A stretch of 40,532 nucleotides of DNA from sequence record LR745707; one strand, given 5' to 3'. Every line of letters begins with the position of its first letter. Position 1 is the stretch's first letter. The position numbers and the translations under genes were made by a program. Under the pieces are notes generated by a model. That model was not told the origin of the DNA, searched no databases, and saw only the letters and a list, made by a program, of their open reading frames with translations. The stretch comes from Escherichia phage T7. Shown one piece after another: positions 14,352 through 40,532 of this stretch.

Positions 14352-16466
14352 ATGATCGTTTCTGACATCGAAGCTAACGCCCTCTTAGAGAGCGTCACTA
14401 AGTTCCACTGCGGGGTTATCTACGACTACTCCACCGCTGAGTACGTAAGCTACCGTCCGAGTGACTTCGGTGCGTATCTGGATGCGCTGGAAGCCGAGGT
14501 TGCACGAGGCGGTCTTATTGTGTTCCACAACGGTCACAAGTATGACGTTCCTGCATTGACCAAACTGGCAAAGTTGCAATTGAACCGAGAGTTCCACCTT
14601 CCTCGTGAGAACTGTATTGACACCCTTGTGTTGTCACGTTTGATTCATTCCAACCTCAAGGACACCGATATGGGTCTTCTGCGTTCCGGCAAGTTGCCCG
14701 GAAAACGCTTTGGGTCTCACGCTTTGGAGGCGTGGGGTTATCGCTTAGGCGAGATGAAGGGTGAATACAAAGACGACTTTAAGCGTATGCTTGAAGAGCA
14801 GGGTGAAGAATACGTTGACGGAATGGAGTGGTGGAACTTCAACGAAGAGATGATGGACTATAACGTTCAGGACGTTGTGGTAACTAAAGCTCTCCTTGAG
14901 AAGCTACTCTCTGACAAACATTACTTCCCTCCTGAGATTGACTTTACGGACGTAGGATACACTACGTTCTGGTCAGAATCCCTTGAGGCCGTTGACATTG
15001 AACATCGTGCTGCATGGCTGCTCGCTAAACAAGAGCGCAACGGGTTCCCGTTTGACACAAAAGCAATCGAAGAGTTGTACGTAGAGTTAGCTGCTCGCCG
15101 CTCTGAGTTGCTCCGTAAATTGACCGAAACGTTCGGCTCGTGGTATCAGCCTAAAGGTGGCACTGAGATGTTCTGCCATCCGCGAACAGGTAAGCCACTA
15201 CCTAAATACCCTCGCATTAAGACACCTAAAGTTGGTGGTATCTTTAAGAAGCCTAAGAACAAGGCACAGCGAGAAGGCCGTGAGCCTTGCGAACTTGATA
15301 CCCGCGAGTACGTTGCTGGTGCTCCTTACACCCCAGTTGAACATGTTGTGTTTAACCCTTCGTCTCGTGACCACATTCAGAAGAAACTCCAAGAGGCTGG
15401 GTGGGTCCCGACCAAGTACACCGATAAGGGTGCTCCTGTGGTGGACGATGAGGTACTCGAAGGAGTACGTGTAGATGACCCTGAGAAGCAAGCCGCTATC
15501 GACCTCATTAAAGAGTACTTGATGATTCAGAAGCGAATCGGACAGTCTGCTGAGGGAGACAAAGCATGGCTTCGTTATGTTGCTGAGGATGGTAAGATTC
15601 ATGGTTCTGTTAACCCTAATGGAGCAGTTACGGGTCGTGCGACCCATGCGTTCCCAAACCTTGCGCAAATTCCGGGTGTACGTTCTCCTTATGGAGAGCA
15701 GTGTCGCGCTGCTTTTGGCGCTGAGCACCATTTGGATGGGATAACTGGTAAGCCTTGGGTTCAGGCTGGCATCGACGCATCCGGTCTTGAGCTACGCTGC
15801 TTGGCTCACTTCATGGCTCGCTTTGATAACGGCGAGTACGCTCACGAGATTCTTAACGGCGACATCCACACTAAGAACCAGATAGCTGCTGAACTACCTA
15901 CCCGAGATAACGCTAAGACGTTCATCTATGGGTTCCTCTATGGTGCTGGTGATGAGAAGATTGGACAGATTGTTGGTGCTGGTAAAGAGCGCGGTAAGGA
16001 ACTCAAGAAGAAATTCCTTGAGAACACCCCCGCGATTGCAGCACTCCGCGAGTCTATCCAACAGACACTTGTCGAGTCCTCTCAATGGGTAGCTGGTGAG
16101 CAACAAGTCAAGTGGAAACGCCGCTGGATTAAAGGTCTGGATGGTCGTAAGGTACACGTTCGTAGTCCTCACGCTGCCTTGAATACCCTACTGCAATCTG
16201 CTGGTGCTCTCATCTGCAAACTGTGGATTATCAAGACCGAAGAGATGCTCGTAGAGAAAGGCTTGAAGCATGGCTGGGATGGGGACTTTGCGTACATGGC
16301 ATGGGTACATGATGAAATCCAAGTAGGCTGCCGTACCGAAGAGATTGCTCAGGTGGTCATTGAGACCGCACAAGAAGCGATGCGCTGGGTTGGAGACCAC
16401 TGGAACTTCCGGTGTCTTCTGGATACCGAAGGTAAGATGGGTCCTAATTGGGCGATTTGCCACTGA
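14352..16466 (+). CDS. 5: gp5 DNA polymerase (uses host thioredoxin as processivity factor)
   Basis: 704-aa [30 protein letters not shown]..., family A polymerase. Confidence 0.98.
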
Positions 16467-33500: not shown

Positions 33501-34550
33501 GGGACCTTGAAGTATTCAACACAGGAACTGGCTGCTCGCTCTCCGTGGACTAAGCTACTGAACGGAACCACTAACTACCTTCTGGATGCTGCGCGTCAAG
33601 GTATGCTTGGGGATGTTATTAGTGCCACCCTAACAGGTAAGACTACCCGCTGGGAGAAAGAAGGCTTCCTTCGTGGTGCCTCCGTAACTCCTGAGCAGAT
33701 GGCTGGCATCAAGTCTCTCATCAAGGAACATATGGTACGCGGTGAGGACGGGAAGTTTACCGTTAAGGACAAGCAAGCGTTCTCTATGGACCCACGGGCT
33801 ATGGACTTATGGAGACTGGCTGACAAGGTAGCTGATGAGGCAATGCTGCGTCCACATAAGGTGTCCTTACAGGATTCCCATGCGTTCGGAGCACTAGGTA
33901 AGATGGTTATGCAGTTTAAGTCTTTCACTATCAAGTCCCTTAACTCTAAGTTCCTGCGAACCTTCTATGATGGATACAAGAACAACCGAGCGATTGACGC
34001 TGCGCTGAGCATCATCACCTCTATGGGTCTCGCTGGTGGTTTCTATGCTATGGCTGCACACGTCAAAGCATACGCTCTGCCTAAGGAGAAACGTAAGGAG
34101 TACTTGGAGCGTGCACTGGACCCAACCATGATTGCCCACGCTGCGTTATCTCGTAGTTCTCAATTGGGTGCTCCTTTGGCTATGGTTGACCTAGTTGGTG
34201 GTGTTTTAGGGTTCGAGTCCTCCAAGATGGCTCGCTCTACGATTCTACCTAAGGACACCGTGAAGGAACGTGACCCAAACAAACCGTACACCTCTAGAGA
34301 GGTAATGGGCGCTATGGGTTCAAACCTTCTGGAACAGATGCCTTCGGCTGGCTTTGTGGCTAACGTAGGGGCTACCTTAATGAATGCTGCTGGCGTGGTC
34401 AACTCACCTAATAAAGCAACCGAGCAGGACTTCATGACTGGTCTTATGAACTCCACAAAAGAGTTAGTACCGAACGACCCATTGACTCAACAGCTTGTGT
34501 TGAAGATTTATGAGGCGAACGGTGTTAACTTGAGGGAGCGTAGGAAATAA
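30594..34550 (+). CDS. 16: gp16 internal virion protein D (ejectosome; N-terminal lytic transglycosylase domain)
   Basis: 1318-aa track ORF; transglycosylase-like LLRKVAWTESRF..GPLGMMQF. Confidence 0.95.
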   Translation: MDKYDKNVPSDYDGLFQKAADANGVSYDLLRKVAWTESRFVPTAKSKTGPLGMMQFTKATAKALGLRVTDGPDDDRLNPELAINAAAKQLAGLVGKFDGDELKAALAYNQGEGRLGNPQLEAYSKGDFASISEEGRNYMRNLLDVAKSPMAGQLETFGGITPKGKGIPAEVGLAGIGHKQKVTQELPESTSFDVKGIEQEATAKPFAKDFWETHGETLDEYNSRSTFFGFKNAAEAELSNSVAGMAFRAGRLDNGFDVFKDTITPTRWNSHIWTPEELEKIRTEVKNPAYINVVTGGSPENLDDLIKLANENFENDSRAAEAGLGAKLSAGIIGAGVDPLSYVPMVGVTGKGFKLINKALVVGAESAALNVASEGLRTSVAGGDADYAGAALGGFVFGAGMSAISDAVAAGLKRSKPEAEFDNEFIGPMMRLEARETARNANSADLSRMNTENMKFEGEHNGVPYEDLPTERGAVVLHDGSVLSASNPINPKTLKEFSEVDPEKAARGIKLAGFTEIGLKTLGSDDADIRRVAIDLVRSPTGMQSGASGKFGATASDIHERLHGTDQRTYNDLYKAMSDAMKDPEFSTGGAKMSREETRYTIYRRAALAIERPELQKALTPSERIVMDIIKRHFDTKRELMENPAIFGNTKAVSIFPESRHKGTYVPHVYDRHAKALMIQRYGAEGLQEGIARSWMNSYVSRPEVKARVDEMLKELHGVKEVTPEMVEKYAMDKAYGISHSDQFTNSSIIEENIEGLVGIENNSFLEARNLFDSDLSITMPDGQQFSVNDLRDFDMFRIMPAYDRRVNGDIAIMGSTGKTTKELKDEILALKAKAEGDGKKTGEVHALMDTVKILTGRARRNQDTVWETSLRAINDLGFFAKNAYMGAQNITEIAGMIVTGNVRALGHGIPILRDTLYKSKPVSAKELKELHASLFGKEVDQLIRPKRADIVQRLREATDTGPAVANIVGTLKYSTQELAARSPWTKLLNGTTNYLLDAARQGMLGDVISATLTGKTTRWEKEGFLRGASVTPEQMAGIKSLIKEHMVRGEDGKFTVKDKQAFSMDPRAMDLWRLADKVADEAMLRPHKVSLQDSHAFGALGKMVMQFKSFTIKSLNSKFLRTFYDGYKNNRAIDAALSIITSMGLAGGFYAMAAHVKAYALPKEKRKEYLERALDPTMIAHAALSRSSQLGAPLAMVDLVGGVLGFESSKMARSTILPKDTVKERDPNKPYTSREVMGAMGSNLLEQMPSAGFVANVGATLMNAAGVVNSPNKATEQDFMTGLMNSTKELVPNDPLTQQLVLKIYEANGVNLRERRK

Positions 34551-34570
34551 TACGACTCACTATAGGGAGA
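34548..34570 (+). promoter_or_regulatory. T7 RNAP promoter phi17 (class III)
   Basis: taatacgactcactatagggaga. Confidence 0.9.
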
Positions 34571-34622
34571 GGCGAAATAATCTTCTCCCTGTAGTCTCTT
34601 AGATTTACTTTAAGGAGGTCAA

Positions 34623-36656
34623 ATGGCTAACGTAATTAAAACCGTTTTGACTTACCAGTTAGATGGCTCCAATCGTGATTTTAATATCCCGTTTGAGTAT
34701 CTAGCCCGTAAGTTCGTAGTGGTAACTCTTATTGGTGTAGACCGAAAGGTCCTTACGATTAATACAGACTATCGCTTTGCTACACGTACTACTATCTCTC
34801 TGACAAAGGCTTGGGGTCCAGCCGATGGCTACACGACCATCGAGTTACGTCGAGTAACCTCCACTACCGACCGATTGGTTGACTTTACGGATGGTTCAAT
34901 CCTCCGCGCGTATGACCTTAACGTCGCTCAGATTCAAACGATGCACGTAGCGGAAGAGGCCCGTGACCTCACTGCGGATACTATCGGTGTCAATAACGAT
35001 GGTCACTTGGATGCTCGTGGTCGTCGAATTGTGAACCTAGCGAACGCCGTGGATGACCGCGATGCTGTTCCGTTTGGTCAACTAAAGACCATGAACCAGA
35101 ACTCATGGCAAGCACGTAATGAAGCCTTACAGTTCCGTAATGAGGCTGAGACTTTCAGAAACCAAGCGGAGGGCTTTAAGAACGAGTCCAGTACCAACGC
35201 TACGAACACAAAGCAGTGGCGCGATGAGACCAAGGGTTTCCGAGACGAAGCCAAGCGGTTCAAGAATACGGCTGGTCAATACGCTACATCTGCTGGGAAC
35301 TCTGCTTCCGCTGCGCATCAATCTGAGGTAAACGCTGAGAACTCTGCCACAGCATCCGCTAACTCTGCTCATTTGGCAGAACAGCAAGCAGACCGTGCGG
35401 AACGTGAGGCAGACAAGCTGGAAAATTACAATGGATTGGCTGGTGCAATTGATAAGGTAGATGGAACCAATGTGTACTGGAAAGGAAATATTCACGCTAA
35501 CGGGCGCCTTTACATGACCACAAACGGTTTTGACTGTGGCCAGTATCAACAGTTCTTTGGTGGTGTCACTAATCGTTACTCTGTCATGGAGTGGGGAGAT
35601 GAGAACGGATGGCTGATGTATGTTCAACGTAGAGAGTGGACAACAGCGATAGGCGGTAACATCCAGTTAGTAGTAAACGGACAGATCATCACCCAAGGTG
35701 GAGCCATGACCGGTCAGCTAAAATTGCAGAATGGGCATGTTCTTCAATTAGAGTCCGCATCCGACAAGGCGCACTATATTCTATCTAAAGATGGTAACAG
35801 GAATAACTGGTACATTGGTAGAGGGTCAGATAACAACAATGACTGTACCTTCCACTCCTATGTACATGGTACGACCTTAACACTCAAGCAGGACTATGCA
35901 GTAGTTAACAAACACTTCCACGTAGGTCAGGCCGTTGTGGCCACTGATGGTAATATTCAAGGTACTAAGTGGGGAGGTAAATGGCTGGATGCTTACCTAC
36001 GTGACAGCTTCGTTGCGAAGAAGTTTCGCCCGGCTGCGCTCGACCCGCGCGGCATGACGCTGGTTGCCGGCGCGTTTTGGGCAGACATCTATCTGCTAGG
36101 CGTCAACCACCTGACCGATGGCACCAGCAAATACAACGTGACAATTGCAGATGGTAGTGCATCACCTAAGAAATCTACCAAGTTCGGTGGAGACGGCAGC
36201 GCGGCCTACAGTGACGGAGCTTGGTACAACTTCGCTGAGGTCATGACTCATCACGGTAAGCGCCTGCCTAACTACAACGAATTCCAGGCGCTGGCTTTCG
36301 GCACGACCGAGGCTACGTCCAGCGGCGGCACCGACGTGCCCACCACCGGCGTGAACGGCACGGGCGCAACGAGCGCGTGGAACATCTTCACGTCCAAGTG
36401 GGGCGTTGTGCAGGCGTCCGGTTGCTTGTGGACGTGGGGTAACGAGTTCGGCGGCGTGAATGGCGCATCCGAATACACGGCCAACACTGGCGGCAGAGGA
36501 TCGGTGTACGCCCAGCCCGCTGCTGCGCTATTCGGCGGCGCCTGGAACGGCACGTCGCTCTCGGGTTCTCGCGCTGCGCTCTGGTACAGCGGGCCGTCGT
36601 TCTCGTTCGCGTTCTTCGGGGCGCGCGGCGTCTGTGACCACCTGATTCTTGAGTAG
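34623..36656 (+). CDS. 17: Chimeric tail fibre: T7 gp17 residues 1 to about 466 fused to a foreign GC-rich 211-aa C-terminal domain recognised as the BPP-1 Mtd C-type-lectin receptor-binding domain
   Basis: 677 aa versus 553 aa for native gp17; T7 sequence through ...LRDSFVAK, then KFRPAALDPRGMTLVAGAFWADIYLLGVNHLTDG...FFGARGVCDHLILE; sharp GC rise from 36021. Confidence 0.85.
   Translation: MANVIKTVLTYQLDGSNRDFNIPFEYLARKFVVVTLIGVDRKVLTINTDYRFATRTTISLTKAWGPADGYTTIELRRVTSTTDRLVDFTDGSILRAYDLNVAQIQTMHVAEEARDLTADTIGVNNDGHLDARGRRIVNLANAVDDRDAVPFGQLKTMNQNSWQARNEALQFRNEAETFRNQAEGFKNESSTNATNTKQWRDETKGFRDEAKRFKNTAGQYATSAGNSASAAHQSEVNAENSATASANSAHLAEQQADRAEREADKLENYNGLAGAIDKVDGTNVYWKGNIHANGRLYMTTNGFDCGQYQQFFGGVTNRYSVMEWGDENGWLMYVQRREWTTAIGGNIQLVVNGQIITQGGAMTGQLKLQNGHVLQLESASDKAHYILSKDGNRNNWYIGRGSDNNNDCTFHSYVHGTTLTLKQDYAVVNKHFHVGQAVVATDGNIQGTKWGGKWLDAYLRDSFVAKKFRPAALDPRGMTLVAGAFWADIYLLGVNHLTDGTSKYNVTIADGSASPKKSTKFGGDGSAAYSDGAWYNFAEVMTHHGKRLPNYNEFQALAFGTTEATSSGGTDVPTTGVNGTGATSAWNIFTSKWGVVQASGCLWTWGNEFGGVNGASEYTANTGGRGSVYAQPAAALFGGAWNGTSLSGSRAALWYSGPSFSFAFFGARGVCDHLILE
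36518..36653 (+). other. DGR variable region (VR) at the 3' end of the chimeric fibre gene
   Basis: About 135 bp GC-rich block matching the remembered BPP-1 mtd VR; codons at recalled template AAC positions read GCC, AAC, GGC, CTC, CTC, TAC, AGC, TTC, TTC, TTC. Confidence 0.6.
36617..36653 (+). promoter_or_regulatory. DGR IMH (initiation of mutagenic homing): 14-bp G/C-only block plus adjacent 23 bp
   Basis: cggggcgcgcggcg (36617-36630) followed by tctgtgaccacctgattcttgag. Confidence 0.6.
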
Positions 36657-36675
36657 CGGGGCCGAAAGGCCCCGC
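36656..36675 (+). promoter_or_regulatory. DGR target-recognition hairpin (8-bp GC stem, GAAA loop)
   Basis: GCGGGGCC GAAA GGCCCCGC immediately after the stop codon; no U-run, so not a typical intrinsic terminator. Confidence 0.7.
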
Positions 36676-36686
36676 CAAGGCAACCG

Positions 36687-36710
36687 GATTTACTTTAAGG
36701 AGGTCAAATG
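36687..36710 (+). promoter_or_regulatory. Duplicated gene 17 ribosome-binding site driving trxA
   Basis: gatttactttaaggaggtcaaatg is identical to 34602-34625 upstream of gene 17. Confidence 0.85.
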
Positions 36711-37037
36711 AGCGATAAAATCATTCACCTGACCGATGACTCTTTTGATACCGACGTGCTGAAAGCTGATGGTGCAATTCTGGTTGATTTCTGGGCAGAG
36801 TGGTGCGGCCCTTGCAAAATGATCGCTCCAATCCTGGACGAAATTGCGGACGAATATCAGGGTAAGCTGACTGTGGCCAAACTGAACATTGACCAGAACC
36901 CTGGCACCGCACCGAAATACGGTATCCGTGGCATCCCAACTCTGCTGCTGTTCAAAAACGGTGAAGTGGCAGCAACCAAAGTAGGCGCTCTGTCTAAAGG
37001 CCAACTGAAAGAGTTCCTGGACGCCAACCTGGCTTAA
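36708..37037 (+). CDS. trxA: Thioredoxin 1 (E. coli TrxA protein sequence), inserted and synonymously recoded
   Basis: 109-aa [109 protein letters not shown]; WCGPC active site; not a T7 gene. Confidence 0.95.
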
Positions 37038-37098
37038 TGATTGGTAAATCACAAGGAAAGACGTGTAGTCCACGGATGGACTCTCAAGGAGGTACAAG

Positions 37099-37302
37099 GT
37101 GCTATCATTAGACTTTAACAACGAATTGATTAAGGCTGCTCCAATTGTTGGGACGGGTGTAGCAGATGTTAGTGCTCGACTGTTCTTTGGGTTAAGCCTT
37201 AACGAATGGTTCTACGTTGCTGCTATCGCCTACACAGTGGTTCAGATTGGTGCCAAGGTAGTCGATAAGATGATTGACTGGAAGAAAGCCAATAAGGAGT
37301 GA
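37099..37302 (+). CDS. 17.5: gp17.5 holin (GTG start)
   Basis: 67-aa track ORF with one hydrophobic segment; RBS caaggaggtacaag upstream. Confidence 0.9.
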   Translation: MLSLDFNNELIKAAPIVGTGVADVSARLFFGLSLNEWFYVAAIAYTVVQIGAKVVDKMIDWKKANKE

Positions 37303-37307
37303 TATGT

Positions 37308-37577
37308 ATGGAAAAGGATAAGAGCCTTATTACATTCTTAGAGATGTTGGACACTGCGATGGCTCAGCGTATGCTTGCGGACCTTTCGGACCATGAGCGT
37401 CGCTCTCCGCAACTCTATAATGCTATTAACAAACTGTTAGACCGCCACAAGTTCCAGATTGGTAAGTTGCAGCCGGATGTTCACATCTTAGGTGGCCTTG
37501 CTGGTGCTCTTGAAGAGTACAAAGAGAAAGTCGGTGATAACGGTCTTACGGATGATGATATTTACACATTACAGTGA
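37308..37577 (+). CDS. 18: gp18 terminase small subunit
   Basis: ATG at 37308 (MEKDKSLITFLEML...) within track ORF 37299-37577; 89 aa. Confidence 0.9.
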   Translation: MEKDKSLITFLEMLDTAMAQRMLADLSDHERRSPQLYNAINKLLDRHKFQIGKLQPDVHILGGLAGALEEYKEKVGDNGLTDDDIYTLQ

Positions 37578-37615
37578 TATACTCAAGGCCACTACAGATA
37601 GTGGTCTTTATGGAT
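37578..37615 (+). promoter_or_regulatory. RNase III processing site R18.5
   Basis: actcaaggccactacagatagtggtctttatggatg hairpin. Confidence 0.55.
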
Positions 37616-37671
37616 GTCATTGTCTATACGAGATGCTCCTACGTGAAATCTGAAAGTTAACGGGAGGCATT

Positions 37672-38103
37672 ATGCTAGAATTTTTACGTAAGCTAATCCC
37701 TTGGGTTCTCGCTGGGATGCTATTCGGGTTAGGATGGCATCTAGGGTCAGACTCAATGGACGCTAAATGGAAACAGGAGGTACACAATGAGTACGTTAAG
37801 AGAGTTGAGGCTGCGAAGAGCACTCAAAGAGCAATCGATGCGGTATCTGCTAAGTATCAAGAAGACCTTGCCGCGCTGGAAGGGAGCACTGATAGGATTA
37901 TTTCTGATTTGCGTAGCGACAATAAGCGGTTGCGCGTCAGAGTCAAAACTACCGGAACCTCCGATGGTCAGTGTGGATTCGAGCCTGATGGTCGAGCCGA
38001 ACTTGACGACCGAGATGCTAAACGTATTCTCGCAGTGACCCAGAAGGGTGACGCATGGATTCGTGCGTTACAGGATACTATTCGTGAACTGCAACGTAAG
38101 TAG
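37672..38103 (+). CDS. 18.5: gp18.5 (Rz-like inner-membrane spanin)
   Basis: 143-aa track ORF with N-terminal transmembrane segment. Confidence 0.9.
   Translation: MLEFLRKLIPWVLAGMLFGLGWHLGSDSMDAKWKQEVHNEYVKRVEAAKSTQRAIDAVSAKYQEDLAALEGSTDRIISDLRSDNKRLRVRVKTTGTSDGQCGFEPDGRAELDDRDAKRILAVTQKGDAWIRALQDTIRELQRK
37787..38038 (+). CDS. 18.7: gp18.7 (Rz1-like outer-membrane spanin, embedded in 18.5 in another frame)
   Basis: 83-aa track ORF nested in gene 18.5; lipobox-like ATISGCASE. Confidence 0.75.
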   Translation: MSTLRELRLRRALKEQSMRYLLSIKKTLPRWKGALIGLFLICVATISGCASESKLPEPPMVSVDSSLMVEPNLTTEMLNVFSQ

Positions 38104-38124
38104 GAAATCAAGTAAGGAGGCAAT

Positions 38125-39885
38125 GTGTCTACTCAATCCAATCGTAATGCGCTCGTAGTGGCGCAACTGAAAGGAGACTTCGTGGCGTTCCTATTCGTCT
38201 TATGGAAGGCGCTAAACCTACCGGTGCCCACTAAGTGTCAGATTGACATGGCTAAGGTGCTGGCGAATGGAGACAACAAGAAGTTCATCTTACAGGCTTT
38301 CCGTGGTATCGGTAAGTCGTTCATCACATGTGCGTTCGTTGTGTGGTCCTTATGGAGAGACCCTCAGTTGAAGATACTTATCGTATCAGCCTCTAAGGAG
38401 CGTGCAGACGCTAACTCCATCTTTATTAAGAACATCATTGACCTGCTGCCATTCCTATCTGAGTTAAAGCCAAGACCCGGACAGCGTGACTCGGTAATCA
38501 GCTTTGATGTAGGCCCAGCCAATCCTGACCACTCTCCTAGTGTGAAATCAGTAGGTATCACTGGTCAGTTAACTGGTAGCCGTGCTGACATTATCATTGC
38601 GGATGACGTTGAGATTCCGTCTAACAGCGCAACTATGGGTGCCCGTGAGAAGCTATGGACTCTGGTTCAGGAGTTCGCTGCGTTACTTAAACCGCTGCCT
38701 TCCTCTCGCGTTATCTACCTTGGTACACCTCAGACAGAGATGACTCTCTATAAGGAACTTGAGGATAACCGTGGGTACACAACCATTATCTGGCCTGCTC
38801 TGTACCCAAGGACACGTGAAGAGAACCTCTATTACTCACAGCGTCTTGCTCCTATGTTACGCGCTGAGTACGATGAGAACCCTGAGGCACTTGCTGGGAC
38901 TCCAACAGACCCAGTGCGCTTTGACCGTGATGACCTGCGCGAGCGTGAGTTGGAATACGGTAAGGCTGGCTTTACGCTACAGTTCATGCTTAACCCTAAC
39001 CTTAGTGATGCCGAGAAGTACCCGCTGAGGCTTCGTGACGCTATCGTAGCGGCCTTAGACTTAGAGAAGGCCCCAATGCATTACCAGTGGCTTCCGAACC
39101 GTCAGAACATCATTGAGGACCTTCCTAACGTTGGCCTTAAGGGTGATGACCTGCATACGTACCACGATTGTTCCAACAACTCAGGTCAGTACCAACAGAA
39201 GATTCTGGTCATTGACCCTAGTGGTCGCGGTAAGGACGAAACAGGTTACGCTGTGCTGTACACACTGAACGGTTACATCTACCTTATGGAAGCTGGAGGT
39301 TTCCGTGATGGCTACTCCGATAAGACCCTTGAGTTACTCGCTAAGAAGGCAAAGCAATGGGGAGTCCAGACGGTTGTCTACGAGAGTAACTTCGGTGACG
39401 GTATGTTCGGTAAGGTATTCAGTCCTATCCTTCTTAAACACCACAACTGTGCGATGGAAGAGATTCGTGCCCGTGGTATGAAAGAGATGCGTATTTGCGA
39501 TACCCTTGAGCCAGTCATGCAGACTCACCGCCTTGTAATTCGTGATGAGGTCATTAGGGCCGACTACCAGTCCGCTCGTGACGTAGACGGTAAGCATGAC
39601 GTTAAGTACTCGTTGTTCTACCAGATGACCCGTATCACTCGTGAGAAAGGCGCTCTGGCTCATGATGACCGATTGGATGCCCTTGCGTTAGGCATTGAGT
39701 ATCTCCGTGAGTCCATGCAGTTGGATTCCGTTAAGGTCGAGGGTGAAGTACTTGCTGACTTCCTTGAGGAACACATGATGCGTCCTACGGTTGCTGCTAC
39801 GCATATCATTGAGATGTCTGTGGGAGGAGTTGATGTGTACTCTGAGGACGATGAGGGTTACGGTACGTCTTTCATTGAGTGGTGA
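38125..39885 (+). CDS. 19: gp19 terminase large subunit (DNA maturase B)
   Basis: 586-aa track ORF. Confidence 0.95.
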
Positions 39886-39966
39886 TTTATGCATTAGGAC
39901 TGCATAGGGATGCACTATAGACCACGGATGGTCAGTTCTTTAAGTTACTGAAAAGACACGATAAAT

Positions 39967-39989
39967 TAATACGACTCACTATAGGGAGA
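39967..39989 (+). promoter_or_regulatory. T7 RNAP promoter phiOR
   Basis: taatacgactcactatagggaga. Confidence 0.9.
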
Positions 39990-40143
39990 GGAGGGACGAA
40001 AGGTTACTATATAGATACTGAATGAATACTTATAGAGTGCATAAAGTATGCATAATGGTGTACCTAGAGTGACCTCTAAGAATGGTGATTATATTGTATT
40101 AGTATCACCTTAACTTAAGGACCAACATAAAGGGAGGAGACTC

Positions 40144-40293
40144 ATGTTCCGCTTATTGTTGAACCTACTGCGGCATAGAGTCACCTACCGATTTCTTGTG
40201 GTACTTTGTGCTGCCCTTGGGTACGCATCTCTTACTGGAGACCTCAGTTCACTGGAGTCTGTCGTTTGCTCTATACTCACTTGTAGCGATTAG
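40144..40293 (+). CDS. 19.5: gp19.5
   Basis: 49-codon ORF MFRLLLNLLRHRVTYRFLVVLCAALGYASLTGDLSSLESVVCSILTCSD after RBS aagggaggag. Confidence 0.75.
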   Translation: MFRLLLNLLRHRVTYRFLVVLCAALGYASLTGDLSSLESVVCSILTCSD

Positions 40294-40369
40294 GGTCTTC
40301 CTGACCGACTGATGGCTCACCGAGGGATTCAGCGGTATGATTGCATCACACCACTTCATCCCTATAGAG

Positions 40370-40532
40370 TCAAGTCCTAAGGTATACCCATAAAGAGCCT
40401 CTAATGGTCTATCCTAAGGTCTATACCTAAAGATAGGCCATCCTATCAGTGTCACCTAAAGAGGGTCTTAGAGAGGGCCTATGGAGTTCCTATAGGGTCC
40501 TTTAAAATATACCATAAAAATCTGAGTGACTA
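40370..40532. repeat. Right-end array of short CCTAAAG-like repeats preceding the (absent) right terminal repeat
   Basis: Repeated cctaagg / cctaaag / cctat units visible; window ends exactly where the right terminal repeat would start. Confidence 0.6.

Follow-up and report, generated by a model that had tools for sequence, protein, structure and literature searches.

This locus raises the question of why a genome deposited under the name Escherichia phage T7 (record LR745707, 40,532 nucleotides, the full length of which is referred to here as the window) carries a thioredoxin gene, and from where that gene was derived. Thioredoxin binds a loop in the thumb domain of the T7 DNA polymerase gp5 and thereby makes it processive. 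The sequence-only reading of this DNA had stated that T7 normally lacks a gene for thioredoxin, and the comparison with other T7 genomes agrees: window positions 36021-37039 are without equivalent in wild-type T7 (V01146), and in over 100 further T7 records the match is confined to 59 nt of native sequence that follow the insert. To the left of the insert, window 1-36020 pairs with T7 1-36021; to the right, window 37040-40532 pairs with T7 36285-39777 (V01146 numbering).

36708-37037, plus strand: trxA, encoding E. coli thioredoxin 1 (109 aa), a synthetic and synonymously recoded gene, in all probability a selection marker (identical protein, 49 synonymous nucleotide differences from the native gene, g-block match)
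37038-37040, plus strand: second in-frame stop codon (TGA), part of the g-block; the return to native T7 sequence is at 37040/37041 (T7 36285/36286)

The open reading frame (ATG to TAA) encodes a protein that matches the Pfam Thioredoxin profile (PF00085) over profile positions 2-102 of 103 (E = 8.4e-35; 119.3 bits, the gathering cut-off of the family being 23.5 bits) and is identical to TrxA of E. coli K-12 MG1655 (b3781) in all 109 residues, with the CGPC redox motif present in its WCGPC context. Hence, its initial identification as E. coli TrxA was correct. The same protein is found as a chain in structures of the T7 gp5-thioredoxin complex, and the top PDB matches include chains of the T7 polymerase/replisome entries 1t7p and 6n7w. 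An antisense frame of 143 aa (36690-37121) was dismissed as a mechanical ORF running across synthetic DNA.

At the nucleotide level the two genes are only 85.2% identical. The comparison with K-12 trxA that had been called for returned the expected picture of an unchanged protein written in other codons, the nucleotide differences falling in 48 of the 110 codons and every one of them being synonymous. Most (46 of 49) lie in third codon positions, and the other three arise from AGT>TCT and TTG>CTG swaps. The stretch quoted in the sequence-only reading as evidence of differing codon choice proved accurate: near the start, the native gene reads ATT ATT CAC CTG ACT GAC GAC AGT and the window ATC ATT CAC CTG ACC GAT GAC TCT, which differ in codons 5, 9, 10 and 12. 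In place of its native promoter and context, the gene has been provided with a T7 late operon and a phage ribosome-binding site.

The origin of this DNA lies in a published construct. Figure S7 of Grigonyte et al. 2020 (Viruses 12:193; PMC7077284) prints a synthetic g-block designated 'HR1-trxA-HR2', to which the window aligns without mismatch over 441 columns; three columns are gaps, most likely letters lost in the machine-read text of the PDF. Exact copies of the window trxA were recovered only from three ENA entries that bear the name 'Escherichia phage T7' (LR745706, LR745708 and LR745709); its nucleotide sequence had no natural match among E. coli genomes or plasmid, phage and Salmonella records, and two of its 24-mers had none among the genomes of 185,579 bacterial and archaeal species. 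Because of the g-block match, the restriction of exact copies to engineered records and the lack of any natural match, we conclude that the window trxA is synthetic DNA from an already known, published construct. The suggestion of deliberate recoding is thus borne out to the extent that the gene is synthetic and equals the printed g-block.

The three records stem from the same study (PRJEB35760), among whose sequenced phages the window, too, belongs; in them the gene is annotated as trxA and stands beside tail-fibre genes annotated as chimaeric fusions. They share with the window the trxA sequence, the leader derived from gene 17, the double stop and the downstream junction with T7; the gp17::Mtd chimeric design of the window is likewise that of Grigonyte et al. 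2020. The cassette adjoins the chimeric gene 17, with unaltered T7 homology arms on both sides, and its junctions are those of the published Gibson primers for plasmid pAG_23: upstream, GCGAAG is joined to AAGTTTCGC, and downstream (from mtd to the trxA leader), CAAGGCAACCG is joined to GATTTACTTTAAGGAGGTCA.

34623-36656, plus strand: chimeric tail-fibre gene 17, T7 gp17 residues 1-466 fused to BPP-1 Mtd residues 171-381 (677 aa), the change selected via the marker (Table S4 design)
36518-36651, plus strand: BPP-1 variable region VR1, without any difference from the BPP-1 reference (located by transfer of the VR1 annotation)
36656-36675, plus strand: native GC-rich hairpin of BPP-1, with an 8-bp stem and a GAAA loop, directly after the mtd stop and without a T-run

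In this chimera, gp17 codons 467-553 have been replaced by residues 171-381 of Mtd from Bordetella phage BPP-1, followed by trxA; the Mtd part runs from Lys171 to the end of the protein and gives the gene a GC-rich 3' end. Compared with LR745708 (phAG_3), the window is devoid of 24 nt (Mtd residues 163-170) and shows two single-base differences, and it is also missing the 48-nt synthetic terminator that separates mtd from trxA in that record. These 48 nt are not BPP-1 sequence, since native BPP-1 continues at that point with the ATG of its next gene. Both length differences were set by the published primers and are therefore differences of design. We considered whether the 48 nt had been lost through a spontaneous deletion that might raise trxA expression, and rejected this possibility, as the junction of CAAGGCAACCG with GATTTAC is already found in the pAG_23 primers.

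14352-16466, plus strand: gene 5, thioredoxin-requiring DNA polymerase (704 aa), open reading frame intact and identical to V01146

According to PMC7077284, which restates the need of gp5 for thioredoxin as processivity factor, T7 cannot do without two host proteins, thioredoxin and dCMP kinase, that E. coli itself can dispense with; wild-type T7 yielded no detectable progeny on BW25113 ΔtrxA (a drop of about 10^10-fold), recombinants obtained from plasmids carrying a chimeric gene plus trxA were selected on this strain, and 100% of the PCR-screened plaques were recombinant. Selection of recombinants is also the purpose stated there for the gene, and was one of the functions put forward from the sequence. 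We are thus close to certain that trxA is a positive-selection marker inserted in the laboratory next to the engineered gene 17 by recombination with a plasmid. The other function put forward, independence from host trxA, describes how the selection works and was not a design aim of its own. Earlier T7 engineering with trxA and cmk markers (cited in PMC7077284 as its refs 14 and 16-18) used the same principle, in which the phage carries a gene that T7 needs and the host can spare and is selected on a deletion host; in the window, by contrast, the marker adjoins a gene fusion and is not a simple replacement of a deleted gene.

We reason that the marker operates as follows. Directly downstream of the fusion of gp17 1-466 with Mtd 171-381 sits the g-block, in which the wild-type E. 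coli TrxA protein is spelled with resampled codons, and the cassette entered T7 through homologous recombination from the plasmid. Since the intact gp5 needs thioredoxin for processivity, replication of T7 in E. coli ΔtrxA is possible only if TrxA comes from the phage; on plating of the recombination lysate on BW25113 ΔtrxA, plaques would then arise only from phages carrying trxA and, hence, the linked tail-fibre change. Expression of the marker would depend on its surroundings, in which the following elements were located.

34548-34570, plus strand: T7 RNA polymerase promoter phi17, the closest one upstream (core at 34548; annotated in V01146)
34602-34625, plus strand: original gene 17 leader, one copy of a 24-nt direct repeat (exact match)
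36687-36710, plus strand: trxA translation leader, an exact copy of the 24-nt gene 17 leader that includes the Shine-Dalgarno AAGGAGG (36697-36703) and the ATG (exact match; g-block and primers)

A consensus scan detected neither promoter-like nor terminator-like sites between gene 17 and gene 17.5, where counts were no higher than in shuffled sequence; the BPP-1 hairpin, being without a T-run, does not resemble a terminator. The 24-nt leader has two exact matches in the window (0 expected by chance). As trxA is deprived of a promoter and terminator site of its own, has phi17 as its nearest promoter and is preceded by the duplicated gene 17 leader, we infer that it is expressed late, co-transcribed with the chimeric gene 17 by T7 RNA polymerase: it would be read from phi17 and the late promoters upstream of it, and translated from the duplicated Shine-Dalgarno leader. 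Masking of this ribosome-binding site by the BPP-1 hairpin was considered and set aside, as the predicted fold confines the stem to 36656-36675 and leaves the Shine-Dalgarno mostly unpaired; with a fold only weakly better than shuffles (z = -2.3), the prediction says little on masking. The plasmid table of PMC7077284 names RBS B0034 ahead of trxA; its sequence (AAAGAGGAGAAA) occurs nowhere in the window, where the actual leader (36687-36707) is that of gene 17. The two leader copies (34602-34625 and 36687-36710) bracket the whole chimeric gene, and recombination between them would delete gene 17 and produce the arrangement of phAG_7 (LR745706).

Could the gene instead have been acquired by natural uptake from an enterobacterium other than E. 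coli, encoding the same protein in other codons, as had been offered alongside deliberate recoding? TrxA is strongly conserved in Enterobacteriaceae, and the genes of Salmonella, Enterobacter and Citrobacter align over their full length; however, trxA of Salmonella, Enterobacter, Klebsiella, Citrobacter and Kosakonia is 82-86% identical to the window gene, no closer than that of E. coli itself (present in 5,426 of 5,426 complete genomes, all within the 80-90% identity band, at best 86.1%). Plasmid records reach at most 85.8% over the full length of the gene, and non-engineered phage and Salmonella records at most 84.6%. Two 24-mers that span 6-7 recoded positions were nowhere matched exactly among 185,579 bacterial and archaeal species (one genome each), which, together with the best E. 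coli identity, argues against a source in another enterobacterium. Considering also that published synthetic DNA and primers reproduce the trxA sequence and its two junctions, we rejected natural uptake, the chance of which we regard as vanishingly small, and the enterobacterial source was discarded with it. Somewhat less remote, yet still very improbable, is that trxA serves mainly to permit replication in heterologous hosts (e.g., Bordetella) with a thioredoxin that gp5 may be unable to use: the linked BPP-1 receptor-binding fusion was meant to expand host range (PMC7077284), and a phage-borne trxA removes the need for host thioredoxin. Against this, the paper describes trxA solely as a selection marker, the same cassette was used for a Yep-phi fusion and for phAG_7 (LR745706), a simple deletion of gene 17, and all the Mtd fusions were reported to be non-infective unless wild-type gp17 was supplied in trans.

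The selection marker being the preferred reading, one may still ask why its codons were changed. PMC7077284 gives no reason, and the word 'codon' is absent from its main text. A functional motive (e.g., avoiding recombination with host trxA or tuning expression) would fit the longest run shared with the native gene (32 nt), a length at which homologous exchange would be restricted where the host is trxA+, and the conversion of three CTC and one TTG leucine codons to CTG. We nevertheless consider it unlikely, as GC content (50.3% in the window, 50.9% in the native gene) and codon-usage index (0.796 and 0.78, respectively) are nearly unchanged, the differences are scattered along the entire gene (1-7 per ten codons), and some lead to rarer codons (CCG>CCT/CCA, AAA>AAG, CAG>CAA). 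In addition, the selection host is deleted for trxA and thus offers little to recombine with, while the mtd g-block carries a patch of synonymous changes as well. A full redraw weighted by codon usage would be expected to change 59±5 codons, against the 48 observed, which fits vendor-style back-translation; the simplest reading is that the recoding arose in the ordering of the DNA, through back-translation or through optimisation by the vendor.

The patch in mtd lies in its upstream part (36026-36270 and 36495-36497), where about 24 synonymous changes relative to BPP-1 (including CGC>AGA; 96.4% identity overall) indicate that this g-block, too, was partly recoded. By contrast, no difference from the BPP-1 reference occurs in VR1, its GC-rich 3' stretch or the downstream hairpin (36518-36675). 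As the window contains neither the template repeat nor the reverse transcriptase of BPP-1, VR1 is an orphan target of a diversity-generating retroelement (DGR). As the native VR1, its GC-rich 3' boundary and the hairpin were left intact while upstream mtd was recoded, the chimeric tail-fibre gene might conceivably still be a target of DGR mutagenesis, provided that the template repeat of BPP-1, its Avd and its reverse transcriptase were made available in trans, although we hold this to be quite doubtful. Were it so, trxA would be a linked marker that keeps the diversifying phage selectable.

Elsewhere the genome is close to wild-type T7: the stretches that match V01146 contain six point differences and a single 1-nt deletion. 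The changes at 742, 1897-1900 and 19560 are those that Table S6 of PMC7077284 lists for phAG_4; in the window they appear as 742 T>C, a small indel/substitution cluster in the gene 0.6 region (1897-1899; window 2 nt shorter than LR745708) and T>G in gene 7.3 (19559). The record thus combines the point changes of phAG_4 with the junctions of pAG_23/phAG_1 (at 36020/36021 and 36686/36687), a mismatch of labelling: the pAG_26/phAG_4 primers would add Ile170 and retain the terminator, whereas Mtd in the window starts at K171 and the 48-nt terminator is missing. A C>T change at 24156 is common to LR745708 and hence belongs to the laboratory strain background. The substitution 34974 A>G (gp17 Thr118Ala) is absent from V01146, LR745708 and Table S6; its position within the left homology arm makes the plasmid a possible source. 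At the right end (window 40373-40532) the assembly stops at T7 39777, and window 1-160 matches T7 39778-39937; the right-hand copy of the 160-bp terminal repeat is therefore missing.

That a record named Escherichia phage T7 is engineered is of value for curation and has little bearing on discovery. The locus illustrates what sets a recoded synthetic gene apart from a natural orthologue, namely an identical protein, synonymous changes only and no match in natural genomes. Since the record is engineered, neither its thioredoxin gene nor the long GC-rich end of its tail-fibre gene represents natural variation of T7 or horizontal transfer.
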